Positions 2,774 through 12,926 of a stretch of 12,926 nt of DNA are shown piece by piece. The stretch lies in assembly GCA_000004985.1 (NCBI GenBank), contig GG738999.1; one strand, given 5' to 3'. The position numbers were made by a program, and so were the translations under genes. The DNA comes from Naegleria gruberi (taxonomy: Eukaryota). A model generated the notes under the pieces. The model saw only the letters and a list, made by a program, of their open reading frames with translations, was not told the origin of the DNA and did not search any database. Position 1 is the first letter of the stretch. Each line of letters starts with the position of its first letter.

Positions 2774-3097
2774 ACTGGGGAGAAAATATTTTACAAACGT
2801 AACCAAGTGCAATTACATTTCCCATTATGTGGGTTTGGTTCTACGAACCTCGGATACCTCTTACTCCAATCTCTTATTGATTTAAGATTTTGAAATTGTT
2901 TATTGTTGATACGAATCAGAAGCTTCTTATTGTGACAACACTTGATAGAAGAATGGGAAAGTGGTTGCATTAATTCAACATATTGAAAGTGAACAAGGTT
3001 CTCATCTCAAGATTTGGAACTCTTCTTCATGAAGAGGAGGTTATTGGGTGGTGACTAGAGAGAAACATTTCCTTGTAGCTTTTCTACTAGTAAATGA

Positions 3098-3260
3098 TTA
3101 ATTGACCAAGATGTTGACCTATAATATGGAAACACAATAAAATTCAATAATACTGATAAATACAGTAGTGAATATGAATGGTAATCATAAATCACTGAAA
3201 AAATCATGATTGGATCCATTTTGAGACTTTTGGAAGTCAACTTGGATGGCAATAGGGGAG
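3098..3260 (+). repeat. Dispersed repeat, copy 1 (family also at 12174-12340).
   Basis: taattgaccaagatgttgacctataatatggaaacac...ggatccattttgagacttttggaagtcaacttggatgg aligns collinearly with 12174-12340 (taattgaccaagatattgagccatactatggaaacac...ggatccacattcatactgtgggaagtcaacttgtgtg). Identity by eye is roughly 70%, with indels. Confidence 0.6.
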
Positions 3261-3885
3261 CTTTTGATGTGGTTAACACTTTTAAAGGGATCTGAATATT
3301 TTATTAGATAATATATGTCATCGTTTTACTTTATCACTAAATGTTGAATATCATGATGTTATGACCTATATTTCCAATTTGCGAAATGTTGCAATGTCAA
3401 TGTTTAATTGAAATATTGCCATCATACCAATAATTGATTATATATTATAAAACTGATATTATACACTATAATTGATATATATATGAATATATAATTGAAA
3501 GATTTGGTTTTAGACATTTATTAATGACGTGGGTAGTTCACTAAGGTAGTAACTTTGTCATGTGACATCTATCTAAGATGATATTGAAATCATTCCAAAA
3601 TTGATTCGATGAGAGTATTTGATGATTATAACTTGGTAGTATTGAATTGGTGTTGATTATTACCATTCATGACATGTAAGAATGTTACCTTTTTGTCAAT
3701 TAGGACAGTAGCTTGACAGATAGTCCAATTATATAGATATTGATTTGTATCACTCAAATACGTTATGAACATCAATTATAAGAGTATTTGTATGATATTC
3801 TATCTTGTTGAACATCTTGATATTGACTTGTCATATATCATGAGTAGTTAGTGACATGGTTAAATGGCATGAATACTGAATGATG

Positions 3886-3935: not shown

Positions 3936-4486
3936 GAATTCTATATCATTATATATCATCTACATCATGTTGGTAAAGTTTCAATAGGTGGTCCTTTTTC
4001 AAGATTTCATCNCTTTTCATCAAAGTAGACCATGTGTGATTGAGGGAAGAAATCTCTAAATATGAAAGTTAAAATAAATTTGATATTCGATGTATACTCA
4101 TCAAATGGAACATTTTCATATCAGGATTTAATATGTTTTGATGAGAAACTCAAAAGTTATTGTTGACCTATTGTACCTCACAACTTCCCTTTTTACTTGA
4201 TACTTTTATACCTACAGACTTGAACTTTTGAAATTTCATGTGAACCTAATGATGAATACTGTTAATGATGATATAAACTATATAATCTCATTAAAGGATT
4301 TTGAAATTATCATTCTTCCTATGGTTTCATTTATGAAATTTTAATCTGACATTATTTACAAAGTTAATATTTTATAAATTGAAAAACTAAATATACCACG
4401 TTATTCTACTCATCATTTCCAATCGAATGATATAAAATTTAATGATATTTGAATAAGTTTATAATTTTGGGCTAGGATTAGAGTTG
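3936..4486 (+). repeat. Satellite-family block S2, copy 1 (paralog at 6566-7010). Its left end is hidden by the gap.
   Basis: gaattctatatca...ggtaaagtttcaataggtggtccttt.tcaagatttc...gaccatgtgtg.ttgagggaagaaatctctaaatatg...ctcattaaaggattttgaaattatcattcttc.tatggtttcatt...tctgacattatttacaaagttaatattttataaattgaaaaactaaatata...tttgggctagg is collinear with 6566-7010 at about 85-90% identity. The one exception is an internal ~85-bp segment that is inverted between the copies. Confidence 0.8.
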
Positions 4487-4794
4487 TTTTGATTTGTTAC
4501 TTCGGTGGCACCATGGTCTTTATGATCTAATATAGAGTCTTTAAGTGAATCTTGGGCTTTTGGAAAGGTTTTTCAGTAAAGTTTTAAAAAAAGTATATAC
4601 TTTCTATCTAGATATCGAGATTTGGTGTATTTGTTGTTTGCGTTGTTATTTGGAAAGTGGTAAAGATTTCGATATTCTTGGATTCTTAGATTCGGTTTCC
4701 ATTCGAAATTGATTGAAGATTCGCTAAGATTCGAATCTTTTTCCGCAAATAAGAATCTTTACCGGTATGAGATTGAATATTCAATTAGCATAGG

Positions 4795-4830
4795 TTTTTA
4801 GGTTTAGATTCTTAGGTTTTCGGACAAATA
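4795..4830 (+). repeat. Weak, degenerate telomere-like tract (ggtttttaggtttagattcttaggtttt).
   Basis: TTTAGG/GGTTT-like units, G-rich on the + strand. It is homologous to part of the stronger tract at 6991-7104, and a ~300-bp insertion of gattc-rich DNA (about 4500-4790) lies in between. Confidence 0.3.
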
Positions 4831-4964
4831 AATTTAACACTACAAGAAAGACAAGTAAGAAAGCTGCTCTATTTTGGCGTATAATTTTTAAAATTACTTT
4901 TCAAAGTAAATCGATTTTATCTACGTTAAAATATTGTGTTCAATTATTATATGGATTGGTTGCA

Positions 4965-5852
4965 ACTTTAAGATATTGATCTATGAATATGAAACTGTTC
5001 CAGATTGTTATCCACATAAAGAGGAGTGTATTCATATTTTACACTAATATGATATTTTGCAAAATGAATGGGATGGAGTGTGATCTTTGTGATGAAAGCT
5101 GACTTTTTGGAAGAATGATATTATTATCATACTGAATATAATTCTAACAGACTGTAAATGATACCATATAATTAATAAAGTGATTTAATATATATGGTAA
5201 AGTTATATAATGATTGAACCTACTTTCATTGAGATAGAGAGTTCACTAGGATATAAATACTGTTGACATTGAACATGAACCGATTGGTTGAATGATAGTA
5301 TCATGAATTGTTTCTAAACTTGTTTATATATACTTAAATGATGTCTAGATTGTGTGATATCAATTTTAGATTTATTGCACGTAAATTGAGTGATTTGGAG
5401 TATAATCTATGATATCATGTCAAAAGTCCATAATAAAGTGATAGAGTTGACAACAGGACATTTACTTAACCGATATTCATGAAATTGATACCATATACTA
5501 ATTAGAGTGTCTACATATCATGATTTTAATTTCAGTGAAAATGGAGTTGTTTCTATCTTTCAGATTTCCATCCATTCCATTGAATTACCACCATGTACTA
5601 TCTACCGGATGTATTTCTTGAAATGAAAATATATAATTTGAAGAAAGTCCACTTTATTTGAGATGTTAAACATGATAGTATCATTTATTTTGAGATTGGT
5701 AACTTTCCCTATAGTGTAATCCTTAATTGTATTAATTGACTAAAAGAGGTCAAGGAGAGATTTCAAAACATAAAATAAATGATATTTTCGAGATGTACTA
5801 TCGATTTCCAATCGATTGATATGTATTTTGTTGATTGAGGATGTGGTTCTCT
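4965..5852 (+). repeat. Higher-order unit S1, copy 1 (about three ~300-bp monomers; paralog at 10640-11526).
   Basis: Collinear alignment with 10640-11526 over ~890 bp at roughly 85% identity, for example gaaactgttccagattgtt / gaaactttctcagattgtt, agtgtctacata.catgat, gaagaaagtccactttatttgagatgt, gactaaaagaggtcaaggagagatttcaaaacataaaataaat, tccaatcgattgatatgtattttgttgattgaggatgt.gttctct. Internally it splits into ~300-bp subunits that each begin with a tt(t)ca(g/t)tga.a...gga(g/t)...ttc motif near 5227, 5533 and 5831. Confidence 0.8.
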
Positions 5853-6565
5853 ATATTCAAGATTTCCTCCTTATCCTCCCAAGTCAACCTTGATAAATCA
5901 CTCTTTACCTTACTGAATTATGGAATATTTACCAAAATGTCTAAAAACTGAATCATATACATTATTAGAGATATGGAACATGATTATATGATTTAATTTG
6001 AGATTGGTAACTTGGCTGATTCACTTGTTCATTTGAGGGAGAGTTTACCACCATTTAGATATTAGAGATATTTCCAATTAGAATGAATGATATTTTCGAT
6101 GACTACTCATCATTTGCAACATTTTCATATGTGTTTTATTGACTGGAGTGATGTTTTTGATATCTTGATTTTCACCTTTCAATCCTTAAAGTCAACCTTA
6201 AGATATCAACCTTTACCTTACTATATTGTCAAATTACATTTTAAAACTCTAAAATTGAATTCTATTACATTATTTGAGTTGTTAAACATGATGGAAGTGT
6301 TTCATAGAGAGGTCATTTTCCAGATTTTCATCCATGTCCATAGTTGACTAGATGGTATGAAAGGGATGAAATCTTGATTATGAAAGTTAAAATAAACTTG
6401 ATATTCAATCTCTACACATCTAATGGAGCATGTACATGTGTAATTTGCTGATTGAAGTGATGTTTTTGATTGACTTGATCTGACTTGTCTTTCCTTTCAG
6501 TCAACTTTGTAAAATCAACATTTACTTTCCTATGGTACCATTTCTGATTCTTATGATATGAAATT
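5853..6565 (+). repeat. Degenerate tandem monomers of the same ~300-bp satellite family, linking S1 copy 1 to S2 copy 2.
   Basis: Monomer-start motifs ttgattgaggatgtggttctct (5831), ttgactggagtgatgtttttgat (6129) and ttgctgattgaagtgatgtttttgat (6445) give spacings of 298 and 316 bp. Shared internal motifs include caagatttcc.cc, agtcaacctt, gaaattgaattctat, tttgag.tgttaaacatgat and gagattggtaactt. Confidence 0.55.
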
Positions 6566-7010
6566 GAATTCTATATCACTATAGATCATATAAATCATTT
6601 TGGTAAAGTTTCAATAGGTGGTCCTTTATCAAGATTTCCACCTTTTCATCATAGTTGACCATGTGTGGTTGAGGGAAGAAATCTCTAAATATGGATGTGA
6701 AAATAAACTTTCTCATCAAAGCATATTATATCCTGATATGAAAATGTTCCATTTGATGAGTAAACATCGAATATCAAATTTATTTTGACATTTATATTAA
6801 TGTTGTTAGGGAAGATATATACTATATAATCTCATTAAAGGATTTTGAAATTATCATTCTTCGTATGGTTTCATTTTATAGTTTTTAATCTGACATTATT
6901 TACAAAGTTAATATTTTATAAATTGAAAAACTAAATATAATACATTGTTCTACTCATCATTTACAATCGAATGATATAATATTCAATAATTTGGGCTAGG
7001 GTTTGAACTT
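6566..7010 (+). repeat. Satellite-family block S2, copy 2.
   Basis: See 3936-4486. A third partial match to the variable segment lies at 6378-6440. Confidence 0.8.
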
Positions 7011-7104
7011 TGAAACATTGGGTCTGGTATTTCAACTTTAGGTTCAAAGGTTTAGATTTTTAGGCTTGGGTTTTTAGGCTTTGGGTTGGTGGGGTTTGGG
7101 TGAG
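6991..7104 (+). repeat. Degenerate interstitial telomere-like tract (tagggttt, ggtttag, tttttaggc, gggtttttaggc, tttgggttggtggggtttgggtgag).
   Basis: Clustered G3T2-3 and TTTAGG-like units, G-rich on the + strand. The tract ends exactly where duplicated unit A begins. Confidence 0.5.
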
Positions 7105-8558
7105 TTTTATACACTTTCATACAATAGAGTGATATTGAAATGTACCCTTTGATATTTCTGGATGGGTAGCATGATTTAGTGATGATTCCGACAATAAAAA
7201 TCATGTATTGTTCATATAATTATCAAGATATTGTATAATTTATTAAATATAAAGTGGGTAATATTGAATATTCTTTGTAGGAGCGGAAGCACTTACTCTT
7301 GTCAGTTGGAGTCAGTACTGTATTAAGGTTCATTTAAGGAATCTTAAAAAAATACAATAACAACTCACCTACATCAATATCATCAAGTTATCATCTATAT
7401 TGAATATGGAGCAACAGCAAGAATGTATGGAGTTGATTCAACATGATTATTGGATTGGAGAGATGGCAAAAATATTGCTATCATTGTATTTGTCAAGTTG
7501 GAAGTACCCTCAGGATCATCAGCAAGGTTTCCTCTTCTCTTCTTGTTTGAGAGAGGTTTTTCATCAACAAGATGGTCATCTTCTTCATTGGAATGGTTGC
7601 TTTATTATTAAGGACTGAGAGTAGCGTTTTTAGATTTATTTTGATGAAATAAATCACAATTTATTACGCACAAAACATCAAGAACAACAAGAACAATGAT
7701 ACACCATCATCAATCAGTGAATTGGCCATCATCATTATTGTATAATTTCTTGGAATTTATTGGATTAATAGTAATTTATGGATTATTTGGTGGAATTACT
7801 ATCCTATTGAAGATGGAACATCAGCAACATCATCAAGATGATCTTCAATTTGGATAGTATTGTTTTCGGAGTGGTTTCACTCTTTTTGTGGGCTCTTTCA
7901 ACATACCATCATCCATCATCAGAATGGTCATCATCTTGTTGAGGGGAATATGTTCAACCTTGTTTTGGAAGGTAGAATATCGTACCACCACTCTACTCTC
8001 CTATTTTGATTAGATTGGTGGAGGTGCCACCACCTATTCATACTCTACATCAGTTGAATCTTCCCTCCATCATTTGGTGAGGGACCAACTTCTCCCTTCC
8101 ATATTGTTTAATAAATTATTGTTATTATCATATAATGATACAATTCTTGTTGTTGTTTGTTGTTAATTGTTGTTGTTAATAGTAACCGACAATTCCCCCT
8201 TAATAGTCATACAACCACTTGGTTATTCATATAAAGCATTTCTAGAAATTAAAAGCTATAGCACTGTTGGTTCAGTGGTTGTATGTTGGAGCGTCAATTA
8301 AGGGACTAGTGATCGATTCAAGGTGATTTTACTAACTTATTCATTTTTACCACCTTATTTTTTTAGATCTTCCTTAATACTTGACAATTTTAAAAGATAT
8401 TGATATCACATATACAATACTACATATAAACAACTCTATGTCAATTTCAATTGATTTAGTCAAGTATTCATTGAGAAAGAGTATGATCTGTGACATGATG
8501 TATTGACAACTTTACAAATATTGATTTAAACAATATGGTTATCTAGAAGAGTCTTATA
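7076..8558 (+). repeat. Duplicated ~1.5 kb unit, copy A (right end lost in the gap at 8559).
   Basis: About 99% identical to 9058-10553. The offset is 1982 bp at the left and grows to 1995 through a +3 (CTT) indel at 7537/9519, a +9 indel in the CAA run at 7690/9672, and a +1 indel at 7866/9848. Substitutions include gattagattgg vs gattggattgg and ggtgccaccacctattc vs ggtgtcaccacctgttc. Confidence 0.9.
8261..8332 (+). pseudogene. tRNA-like fragment (degenerate; possibly a tRNA-derived or SINE-like head) inside unit A.
   Basis: gcactgttggttcagtggttgtatg resembles the 5' acceptor and D-arm of eukaryotic tRNA-Gly(GCC), GCATTGGTGGTTCAGTGGTAGAAT. The downstream gatcgattcaagg resembles a T-loop (GGTTCGATTCC). 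No complementary 3' acceptor strand or convincing anticodon stem is present, so it is not an intact tRNA. Confidence 0.3.
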
Positions 8559-8608
8559 NNNNNNNNNNNNNNNNNNNNNNNNNNNNNNNNNNNNNNNNNN
8601 NNNNNNNN
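8559..8608. other. Assembly gap of 50 N.
   Basis: Run of n characters. It truncates copy A of the duplicated unit. Confidence 1.
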
Positions 8609-9054
8609 GACAGTCACATGGTTTTGGTGATTTTATCCACCTCTTTCTAGACAATTAAATTTAAAAATATCAAATGTTCTATTTATTATATAATAATTAT
8701 CTACATAATTAGTTTTGACTGAATCGGTCTAGAAAAAAAGTTATGTTTAAAAAACTATTTCAACTTTAATATTTATTTTCTCTTTCATTTTTAAGAATTT
8801 TTAATTTTTGATACCCTAGAAAAATTCTAATTTAAAAATACTATATTTCATATATTTTTTTAAAAAAATAAGGTTGGGTTTGGAAATACATACTCTTTGA
8901 TTATTCAATGAAAAACTACTTAACCATTCATTATGATATCTTACAAACTTGTTCTATACATTTAGGAGGAGCTACCCTGAAAGGATGACATCTTTAAATC
9001 AAATATTCATCGAACTATAAGGCACAGGTTTGAAAGACAAATATTGAAAGTTAG

Positions 9055-9087
9055 AAAAGGGTTTGGGTTGGTGGGGTTTGGGTGAGT
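9055..9087 (+). repeat. Telomere-like G-rich head of duplicated unit B (aaagggtttgggttggtggggtttgggtgag).
   Basis: GGGTTT, GGGTT and GGGGTTT units, G-rich on the + strand. The same sequence heads unit A. Confidence 0.55.
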
Positions 9088-10553
9088 TTTATACACTTTC
9101 ATACAATAGAGTGATATTGAAATGTACCCTTTGATATTTCTGGATGGGTAGCATGATTTAGTGATGATTCCGACAATAAAAATCATGTATTGTTCATATA
9201 ATTATCAAGATATTGTATAATTTATTAAATATAAAGTGGGTAATATTGAATATTCTTTGTAGGAGCGGAAGCACTTACTCTTGTCAGTTGGAGTCAGTAC
9301 TGTATTAAGGTTCATTTAAGGAATCTTAAAAAAATACAATAACAACTCACCTACATCAATATCATCAAGTTATCATCTATATTGAATATGGAGCAACAGC
9401 AAGAATGTATGGAGTTGATTCAACATGATTATTGGATTGGAGAGATGGCAAAAATATTGCTATCATTGTATTTGTCAAGTTGGAAGTACCCTCAGGATCA
9501 TCAGCAAGGTTTCCTCTTCTTCTCTTCTTGTTTGAGAGAGGTTTTTCATCAACAAGATGGTCATCTTCTTCATTGGAATGGTTGCTTTATTATTAAGGAC
9601 TGAGAGTAGCGTTTTTAGATTTATTTTGATGAAATAAATCACAATTTATTACGCACAAAACATCAAGAACAACAAGAACAACAACAATGCTGATACACCA
9701 TCATCAATCAGTGAATTGGCCATCATCATTATTGTATAATTTCTTGGAATTTATTGGATTAATAGTAATTTATGGATTATTTGGTGGAATTACTATCCTA
9801 TTGAAGATGGAACATCAGCAACATCATCAAGATGATCTTCAATTTGGATAGTATTGTTTTCAGGAGTGGTTTCACTCTTTTTGTGGGCTCTTTCAACATA
9901 CCATCATCCATCATCAGAATGGTCATCATCTTGTTGAGGGGAATATGTTCAACCTTGTTTTGGAAGGTAGAATATCGTACCACCACTCTACTCTCCTATT
10001 TTGATTGGATTGGTGGAGGTGTCACCACCTGTTCATACTCTACATCAGTTGAATCTTCCCTCCATCATTTGGTGAGGGACCAACTTCTCCCTTCCATATT
10101 GTTTAATAAATTATTGTTATTATCATATAATGATACAATTCTTGTTGTTGTTTGTTGTTAATTGTTGTTGTTAATAGTAACCGACAATTCCCCCTTAATA
10201 GTCATACAACCACTTGGTTATTCATATAAAGCATTTCTAGAAATTAAAAGCTATAGCACTGTTGGTTCAGTGGTTGTATGTTGGAGCGTCAATTAAGGGA
10301 CTAGTGATCGATTCAAGGTGATTTTACTAACTTATTCATTTTTACCACCTTATTTTTTTAGATCTTCCTTAATACTTGACAATTTTAAAAGATATTGATA
10401 TCACATATACAATACTACATATAAACAACTCTATGTCAATTTCAATTGATTTAGTCAAGTATTCATTGAGAAAGAGTATGATCTGTGACATGATGTATTG
10501 ACAACTTTACAAATATTGATTTAAACAATATGGTTATCTAGAAGAGTCTTATT
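9058..10553 (+). repeat. Duplicated ~1.5 kb unit, copy B.
   Basis: See copy A. Downstream of 10553 copy B runs into DNA unrelated to the sequence that follows A's gap (8609-9058), so the pair is not a simple head-to-tail tandem. Confidence 0.9.
10256..10327 (+). pseudogene. tRNA-like fragment, copy in unit B.
   Basis: Identical to 8261-8332 at an offset of 1995. Confidence 0.3.
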
Positions 10554-10639
10554 AATTTGTAATAAATATACTATATTTCAATTTTCAATTGTTGACTTGA
10601 TGTACTTAATTGACTTGTCTATTCTAAGGTTACTTAGTT

Positions 10640-11526
10640 GACTTGAAGATACTGAGCCATGAATTTGAAACTTTCTCAGATTGTTCTCCTCATCAAGAGG
10701 AGTGTATTCGTATTTGATACTAGTATGATATTTTGTAAACTGACTGAGATGGAGTGTAATCTCTTTTTTGAAATGTGATATTTTGAAAGATTGTTATTAT
10801 TATCATATTGAATTCAATTCTAAAACTATGAAATTGATACCAGATGTATAATAGTGTGACTAAACGTATTGGGTAAAGTTACAGAATGAATGGAATAACT
10901 TTCACTGAGATGGAGTGTTCACTAGGATATATATAATGTTGATATTGAACATTTACTGATTAATTTTATGAAAATAGTTTGAAATGTTTCTTAACTATTG
11001 TAGATGTATTTAATTGATATATAGACTATGTGGTATCAATTCTAGACTTGTTATATGTAAAATGAGTGATTTGGAGTATAATCTATGATATCATGTCAAA
11101 TATCTATAGTAAATTGATAGAGTTGACACCTCGACATCTACTGAACCAATATTTATGAAATTGATACCACATACTAATTAGAGTGTCTACATACCATGAT
11201 ATCAATTTCAGTGAAATTGGAGTTGTTTCTGGACCCTTCAGATTTCCATTCTCCTGACAAATCAGCATGTACTATCTACTGGATGTATTTCTTGAAATGA
11301 AAACATATAATTTGAAGAAAGTCCACTTTATTTGAGATGTAGGACACGATATTATCATTTATTATGAGATTGGTAACTTTTCCTATAGTGTCATCCTTAA
11401 TTGTCTTAATTGACTAAAAGAGGTCAAGGAGAGATTTCAAAACATAAAATAAATTATATTTTCGAGATTTACTATTGATTTCCAATCGATTGATATGTAT
11501 TTTGTTGATTGAGGATGTTGTTCTCT
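10640..11526 (+). repeat. Higher-order unit S1, copy 2.
   Basis: See 4965-5852. After ttgattgaggatgttgttctct the homology with copy 1 stops abruptly, and a G-rich telomere-like tract follows. Confidence 0.8.
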
Positions 11527-11564
11527 GGGGTTGGGGGTTGGGGTTGGGTTTGGGTTTGGGTATG
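11527..11564 (+). repeat. Interstitial telomere-like tract: ggggtt gggggtt ggggtt gggttt gggttt gggtatgg.
   Basis: Five to six consecutive G3-5T2-3 units are read directly from the sequence. The tract sits exactly at the breakpoint where S1 copy 2 diverges from S1 copy 1 (5852/11526). Confidence 0.7.
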
Positions 11565-12173
11565 GCGAAAACCTATTCTCATAAAATGAACCACTAATAT
11601 TGGCTATCCAGTTCTTATATATGTATTACTATATAAAATAATCTATCTATTCTGTAATACAGGTGAAAAAACTCCCCGTAGTTATTGAGATAATCAAAAA
11701 TGGTCAACTCAAAAATTCCTAGTATATCTATTATCTCTGCGACGAGAACGTTCCGGGTTATGATTCACTCAAATATCAATCTATATGAGTATTGGAAGAA
11801 ATGATAGAAAATACTAATTTTTTTAATTCGCCGTTCCCGAGATAATTGAGTCCTAAAGTGACCCCATGGGTTGAACCAACCTTGGGTCTGACAAAGTTGA
11901 AAATTTCAAAGTTGGGCCAGAATGAAACTTTTGATATATTGTAGATATATTTATGAATAGATGATATTATGAATTAATCTAGTTGAATCGGTGTATTTAA
12001 TAAATTACAACATGTCTTAAAATAAACTTTTCAACATTTATTGTACTATTATATGAATGTTATTAGAATCATCACCAATCTCATATATATGATGTATAAT
12101 GATGATATCTACCTTATAGAATTGTTGGAAATATAATATATGATATCCTTAGTATACTGTACTCATTCTACCT

Positions 12174-12340
12174 TAATTGACCAAGATATTGAGCCATACT
12201 ATGGAAACACTATACCAATTTATTAAACTTGTTAATATTGTAGTAAATATCAATTATAATCATATATAATTGAAATAATCATTATTGGATCCACATTCAT
12301 ACTGTGGGAAGTCAACTTGTGTGAAATTGACAATACTGGT
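12174..12340 (+). repeat. Dispersed repeat, copy 2 (see 3098-3260).
   Basis: Collinear similarity to 3098-3260. Confidence 0.6.
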
Positions 12341-12464
12341 AATTGAAGGATGAATATCTTACATGACTTAATTCCACTCATTCATACATGTCTAACTATC
12401 ATGGTTTATAATATCTAATTGAAATAATTGAAATTAATCATGTACATAAGGATATAATCAATTA

Positions 12465-12926
12465 GGGTGAATCCTTCCAATCCTGCTGTGGGAATGTAAT
12501 GGAATACTGAAGTCAATGGAAACATCACCAATTCATATGAAATTGATACAGAATACATAATAATATGTTAGAAATCGATTGGTGTTGAAAGAATTCAAAT
12601 CTGTTCAGTAGTTGTTGAGATCTGTATAAACCTACGGTACTATGGGACGAATGTAGGGCTGAGATGACCATATATGAAAGTATCGCTTCACTCAATAAAT
12701 TATATATCAAAATGTTGATGACGATGAGTACAGTTGATTGATATAGTTTTTGGTGACTGGAAGTGTCTAGAAGTATCACTATGTTGTCAATTGACCATTC
12801 CTTAATGAGTTGCCTTGGAACTTTTCCAATCATTGTGAAATTGATACATAATATATTATTTGATATTTGCAATGTATTGGAGTTGAAATAATTCAAATCC
12901 ACTCAGTAGAAATGGAGATATCATCA
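12465..12926 (+). repeat. Tandem array of ~300-350 bp satellite-like monomers (one full unit plus a partial second, truncated by the window end).
   Basis: ccttccaatc...catatgaaattgatacagaatacataataatatgttagaaatcgattggtgttgaaagaattcaaatctgttcagtagttgttgagatc (12473-12625) recurs as cttttccaatcattgtgaaattgatacataatatattatttgatatttgcaatgtattggagttgaaataattcaaatccactcagtagaaatggagatatc (12821-12922). The atgaaattgatac(c)a core also occurs at 5473, 10829 and 11157 inside S1 monomers. Confidence 0.6.

Follow-up and report, generated by a model that had tools for sequence, protein, structure and literature searches.

Near-identical copies of a non-coding unit headed by telomere-like repeats on a Naegleria gruberi scaffold: comparison with subtelomeric duplicons

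The yeast subtelomere has an X and Y' organization with internal TG1-3 tracts, while human subtelomeric duplicons have (TTAGGG)n at their boundaries, and breaks that were capped with telomere repeats and later gained distal DNA are known from the subtelomeres of yeast, human, and other organisms. In telomeres the G-rich strand runs 5' to 3' toward the chromosome end. Telomere repeats are also found attached to retroelements, such as the endonuclease-deficient Penelope-like Athena elements, TRAS and SART of Bombyx, GilT of Giardia, and Zepp of Chlorella. On the chromosome ends of Naegleria almost nothing has been published, and a literature search gave only the candidate repeat TTTGGG. Here, we describe a unit of about 1.5 kb that occurs twice, as copy A (7076-8558) and copy B (9058-10553), on a small scaffold of the Naegleria gruberi draft genome (GenBank contig GG738999.1, assembly GCA_000004985.1); the complete scaffold of 12.9 kb was analyzed and is called the window below. 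With a probability of roughly 0.55, we favor the reading that the unit is a non-coding, subtelomere-type duplicon that is bounded by interstitial telomere repeats (ITS) and was recently copied by recombination or break-induced replication (BIR).

The locus resembles the ITS-bounded duplicons of yeast and human in four respects. Low-copy blocks are stacked in one orientation, short and partly degenerate telomere tracts lie at the junctions with their G-rich strand toward the presumed distal side, the copies are nearly identical, implying a recent exchange, and a truncated paralogous block is capped by telomere repeats. Unlike in yeast and human, the position at a chromosome end is one that we infer here, and the motif is TTTGGG or TTGGGG. 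In contrast to yeast Y', the Naegleria unit contains no helicase-type open reading frame (ORF).

The window, a scaffold that is unplaced and rich in repeats, has a GC content of ~30% and is built from four contigs (1-2723, 2774-3885, 3936-8558, and 8609-12926), with a gap of exactly 50 N at each of the three joins. Because all three lengths are identical, these gaps are probably placeholders and not measured distances. The two copies, which lie on the + strand as do all tracts, runs, and blocks described below unless stated otherwise, were recovered by repeat search and self-BLAST and aligned with MAFFT. Copy A is 1483 nt long and its right side is cut off by the end of contig 3 at 8558, directly followed by the gap between contigs 3 and 4 (8559-8608), which covers the right end and the right flank of A. 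Copy B is 1496 nt long over the part that is comparable with A, and its true end may lie beyond 10553. Self-BLAST aligns 7076-8557 with 9058-10552 over 1495 columns at 98.9% identity when gap columns are counted, and the identity at aligned bases is 99.7-99.8%, in agreement with the two near-identical copies reported in a preliminary description of this DNA. In the MAFFT alignment, the copies differ by four substitutions and by 13 bases inserted in B. The insertions consist of TCT at 9515-9517 within a CTT-type run (9505-9530; A equivalent ~7523-7545), nine nucleotides at 9682-9690 (CAACAA plus TGC) after a CAA/GAA run (9655-9690; A equivalent 7670-7696), and a single A at 9862. The last site is not a microsatellite, so that, contrary to what had been proposed, not all length changes fall within trinucleotide runs. 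One substitution lies at the boundary of the unit (7079 C / 9061 G). The three internal ones are all transitions (8012/10007 A>G, 8027/10022 C>T, and 8036/10031 A>G) and fall within 25 nt (8012-8036; B equivalent 10007-10031; P ~8e-4 for random clustering), which suggests either that a short patch was converted from another copy or that read quality was locally poor. This cluster surrounds a near-palindrome, GGTGGAGGTG(C/T)CACCACC.

The homology between the copies begins at 7076 and 9058, and the flanks to the left of these positions are unrelated, as stated in the preliminary description. The left flank of B is an AT-rich spacer (8609-9057; 449 nt; GC ~21-23%) that is unique within the window. 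Self-BLAST and sensitive BLAST within the window found no match to this spacer before A or after B, and the sensitive comparison of the spacer and the 3' flank of B with the rest of the window returned weak AT-rich matches only. A simple tandem array with a period of ~2 kb was therefore rejected. The earlier claim that the copies are not a simple tandem is thus upheld for a spacing of ~2.0 kb, but does not extend to a direct duplication of longer period, which is weighed below. Different downstream contexts had also been claimed for the two copies. This claim compares the real flank of B with the start of the next contig across a placeholder gap, and it is unsupported because the contig end truncates A.

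Both copies start with the same irregular TTTGGG tract, which confirms the shared telomere-like head noted before. TTTGGG was identified as the candidate telomere repeat of N. gruberi from genome data in a survey of eukaryotic telomeres (PMC3622300), and the literature search brought up no more recent account of telomeres or subtelomeres in Naegleria. The head of A is aGGCTTTGGGTTGGTGGGGTTTGGGTGAG (7076-7104), an irregular (TTTGGG)n with four G-runs, and the head of B is aGGGTTTGGGTTGGTGGGGTTTGGGTGAG (9058-9086), in which the variants follow in the same order. These first 29 nt of the unit can be written as a-GG(C/G)TTT-GGGTTGGTGGGGTTTGGGTGAG. The copies agree fully in the irregular GGGTTGGTGGGGTTTGGGTGAG, and the flanks just upstream of the heads are unrelated. 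The identical and odd order of variants indicates that the tract was copied with the unit and not made twice by telomerase. Upstream of A only, a decayed telomere-like tract with TTTGGG- and TTTAGG-like pieces is found (6990-7075), and 12-mers that match at 9-10 or more of their 12 positions occur here at 6989-7081. This presence of ~85 nt of decayed telomere-like sequence before the tract of A, and of none before that of B, fits with A being the older context.

Telomere-like sequence is enriched and uniformly oriented in the window, which strengthens the earlier suggestion of a telomere-associated unit. For GGGTTTGGG with at most one mismatch, 1.2 occurrences are expected and 14 are found, without exception on the + strand. 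Of the 75 telomere-like 12-mers, defined by 10 or more matches out of 12, 74 lie on the + strand and one on the - strand, compared to ~3 per strand in shuffles. The 12-mers cluster at ~2018, ~2827, 6990-7093, 8871, 9057-9075, and 11524-11555. Three tracts (7076-7104, 9058-9086, and 11527-11567) sit at homology boundaries. Because the G-rich strand is always on the + strand, the distal side would be to the right, and the uniform orientation of the tracts fits with this and with a proximal left side that carries the only gene. Isolated + strand matches at 2018-2030, 2827-2839, and 8871-8884 (GGGGTTTGGTT, GTGGGTTTGGTT, and GGTTGGGTTTGG) have the same orientation as the larger tracts.

A second, independent breakpoint with a telomere tract lies downstream of B. 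Here, self-BLAST identifies a block (10641-11526) that is separated from B by 88 nt and is 84% identical to 4965-5852, a paralogue located 1.2 kb upstream of A. The two blocks run parallel up to ...GTTCTCT, after which the contig-3 copy continues at 5852 into a ~308-bp satellite, while in the contig-4 copy the homology ends abruptly at 11526 and is followed by GGGGTTGGGGGTTGGGGTTGGGTTTGGGTTTGGGTATGG. Exactly at this breakpoint lies an interstitial telomere tract of the form (GGGGTT)3(GGGTTT)3 (11527-11567), and behind it follow 1.36 kb of unrelated DNA. The junction at 11526 bears the signature of a telomerase-capped break that later gained distal DNA. The tract mixes TTGGGG and TTTGGG, which suggests that the Naegleria telomerase product, or what remains of it after decay, is not composed of TTTGGG alone, and this mixture is relevant to defining the Naegleria telomere. 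It had been stated that B is followed by satellite. The sequence that follows consists of the 88 nt and then the 84% identical copy of the block, of which only the last ~200 nt correspond to satellite, namely to the first monomer in the block at 4965-5852.

In the favored reading, the scaffold has the anatomy of a subtelomere, with a normal gene on the left, followed by a patchwork of low-copy blocks and the 308-bp satellite, and with several block junctions marked by short ITS tracts; the chromosome end would lie to the right. The TTTGGG tract at the left boundary of the unit would have been copied together with the block in a recent duplication at the DNA level, most likely by recombination or by BIR initiated at the telomere-like tract, and the exchange partners may have been different chromosome ends or sister or homologous chromatids. 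In such an event, a break after ...GTTAGAAAA would leave an end, perhaps seeded with GGGTTT, that pairs with the interstitial tract before an existing unit and copies the sequence distal to it. BIR or unequal recombination would be the most economical account of the copying step. Later changes would be slippage in the microsatellites and perhaps conversion of a short patch. The unit would then be a passenger of chromosome-end dynamics and not an autonomous or SINE-like mobile element (SINE, short interspersed nuclear element). This model predicts the same sequence after A as is found after B (10554 onward).

Several points weigh against this interpretation. The scaffold is unplaced and carries no terminal telomere array at its end, and its subtelomeric location is presumptive. 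The role of TTTGGG as the N. gruberi repeat depends on its status as a computational candidate in the literature, and the clusters at ~2018, 2827, and 8871 are single short matches that could be due to chance. The copies of the unit (n=2) were counted within this scaffold, and the presumed arrangement of A and B in cis depends on a single scaffold join across a placeholder gap.

Among the competing explanations, an assembly or scaffolding artefact fares best, and we consider it unlikely, though still to be reckoned with. According to this explanation, which the preliminary description had already raised in a similar form, A and B are either alleles of a heterozygous locus with a structural difference on their left side or copies from different chromosome ends, which were chained by mate pairs in repeats. 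The locus indeed shares features with the haplotype and repeat artefacts of Sanger-era assemblies: one copy stops exactly at a contig end beside one of the three placeholder gaps, and the scaffold is a small, repeat-rich leftover of 12.9 kb in which the breaks between the four contigs fall at repeats, contig 3 beginning in a satellite monomer and ending in the 1.5 kb unit. The divergence of 0.2-0.3% is within the range expected for alleles, and Naegleria has been described as mainly heterozygous diploid (PMC9928731). The clustering of the three internal substitutions would also be expected from a read-quality problem or from a patch from another copy. However, in contrast to such artefacts, the left flanks of A and B are unrelated and both left junctions lie inside contigs, so that contiguous sequence backs two junctions that differ from each other. 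A haplotig or collapsed repeat would be expected to share flanks on both sides; the left flanks differ, and the 50-N gap covers the right flank of A. Moreover, the 13 nt of indels and the four substitutions imply that the reads contain two or more distinct versions of the unit, and nothing in the window contradicts the scaffold order.

The second explanation, which we regard as improbable, is a direct tandem duplication with a period far above 2 kb. The duplicated segment would comprise the unit, everything after B, DNA that is not seen, and the spacer 8609-9057, the telomere-like head would be incidental, and the right-hand part of A would be hidden in a gap with a real length of several kb. 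The very high identity of A and B and the position of A's right flank behind the gap agree with this explanation, and the different left flanks are as expected for a direct duplication in two copies. However, the 50-N gap would have to hide more than 2.4 kb, and the 2.4 kb after B contain no repeat of the spacer. Furthermore, the left homology boundary coincides exactly with a telomere-like tract, and another breakpoint of this scaffold is likewise marked by a telomere tract, which is unlikely to be a coincidence.

The nature of the unit itself bears on the remaining explanation, that of a mobile element. The longest ORF of the unit, on the + strand, has 109 aa from ATG (118 codons stop to stop) and is present in B only. 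In A, a stop at 8012 and the frameshift of the 1-nt indel disrupt it, and all three internal substitutions are non-synonymous in its frame. Searches with this ORF gave neither a Pfam match nor, among 1.84 billion representative proteins, a homologue. Likewise, the concatenated six-frame ORFs of the unit (at least 35 aa) have no homologue among 5.8 billion proteins, and a Pfam search with ten ORFs (E<=1) gave two sub-threshold hits at chance level only, with no reverse transcriptase or other domain. The earlier statement that the unit has no long ORF thus needs to be corrected for B. Four of the six frames are simultaneously open at ~9430-9590, which points to a stop-poor, low-complexity composition and not to a gene. 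An intron-split gene on the minus strand was considered and rejected: the three-frame reading gave no consistent open frame, and the 1-nt indel puts the copies out of frame with each other. We therefore regard the unit as non-coding or, at most, as a decayed relic. The unit contains three occurrences of a 24-nt motif, CATCAxCAAGATGGTCATCTTCTT (9547-9570, 9822-9845, and 9909-9932, with A equivalents), with 75-83% identity, which may be the trace of an old internal repeat or of repetitive coding sequence that has decayed. Exact searches with two 22-24-mers of the unit found no match in JGI metagenome contigs or IMG/VR, and no match was found among PLSDB plasmids, all of these being collections without the rest of the N. 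gruberi genome.

That the unit is a non-autonomous mobile element, either SINE-like or a telomere-targeting retroelement on the minus strand, is in our view very improbable. The two near-identical copies with different left flanks are compatible with transposition, and so are the A-rich minus strand over 7800-8400, with its hydrophilic and acidic repeated motifs, and the telomere tract, which is part of the copied unit and is found at one terminus in fixed orientation in both copies; the latter is equally expected for a duplicon. The SINE-like variant followed from a degenerate tRNA-like segment (10250-10325; A equivalent 8255-8330) in the preliminary description. This segment is unsupported as a tRNA or as tRNA-derived: ARAGORN found no tRNA gene (0), Rfam gave no significant family and no tRNA match for the whole window at E<=1, the sole match being a chance-level MIR172 with 22.9 bits against a gathering score of 70, and no tRNA was matched in a 221-nt slice around the segment (10180-10400) even at E<=10. 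A tRNA-derived SINE was rejected, as the unit lacks a tRNA-derived 5' head and measures at least 1483 nt, compared to ~80-500 bp for SINEs. With these elements the unit has in common only its non-coding nature and its presence in more than one copy. It differs from them in that it has no tRNA-related region, that the candidate segment is not at the 5' end but ~1.18 kb from the start of a unit that measures at least 1.48 kb, and that an A-rich or simple-repeat tail is missing from the comparable end. No terminal inverted repeats or long terminal repeats were found in the unit. In B there is no tail at 10553 and no poly(A), and no flank repeat was seen (the right end of A lies behind the gap), while a target-site duplication is not definable with the right end hidden. 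Only two copies were seen, and every hallmark that was tested fails except the shared terminal telomere tract.

In its telomere-targeting version, the mobile element would have a 3' end with a C-rich, (CCCAAA)-like tail complementary to TTTGGG and would prime on the G-rich overhangs of chromosome ends, in the manner of endonuclease-deficient Penelope-like elements of the Athena type. This version is more improbable still; if true, the unit would be the first element of its kind from Heterolobosea. The unit is like the telomere-attached retroelements in that a telomere tract is joined to one of its termini in constant orientation, but unlike them, it contains no ORF or remnant of a reverse transcriptase, has no homologue, and is visible in two copies. 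Less likely still is a variant in which an undiscovered Naegleria telomerase RNA gene has the C-rich stretch as its template.

The duplication is an ordinary product of either chromosome-end recombination or draft assembly. If the scaffold is truly subtelomeric, it would provide a first sketch of how Naegleria chromosome ends are built, with stacked blocks that are separated by co-oriented TTTGGG/TTGGGG tracts, and with breakage, healing, and recent copying between ends. The locus also flags an unreliable spot in the reference assembly.

The only clear gene of the window lies on the minus strand at its left side (1-1775), runs off the left scaffold end, and marks the gene-bearing, proximal side. 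This only long ORF is 100% identical to the NCBI entry "predicted protein, partial [Naegleria gruberi]" and encodes a protein with two C-terminal EGF-type Pfam domains. The sole match among 5.8 billion clustered proteins at E<=0.001 is the protein itself, and apart from the two C-terminal EGF-type repeats it appears to be an orphan. Between this gene and the first gap, an 11-nt tandem repeat (ATCATATCATC) is present in 6 copies with 96% matches (2502-2568). The ~308-bp satellite (S1; 5651-6710) was identified by repeat search and self-BLAST and is degenerate, with ~3.4 copies and ~66% identity between neighbors; satellite sequence is found at 3936-4148 and 5651-6798, with GAATTC at the monomer starts. 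The piece at 3936-4148 directly follows the second gap, and because contig 3 opens exactly at a monomer start, this gap probably hides more satellite. A 90-nt inverted repeat (4059-4148 and 6709-6798), the arms of which are 93% complementary and 2.56 kb apart, adjoins a 195-nt direct repeat (4252-4446 and 6796-6990) with 89% identity; together, these repeats indicate that the satellite region was rearranged by inversion as well as by duplication. A 147-nt direct repeat of ~80% identity (3098-3244 and 12173-12319) represents a low-copy block that is common to contig 2 and the far right of contig 4. The longest ORF of the repeat-rich part (125 aa; 12525-12902, minus strand) has no Pfam match and overlaps a ~298-bp repeat pair (12521-12621 and 12819-12919).

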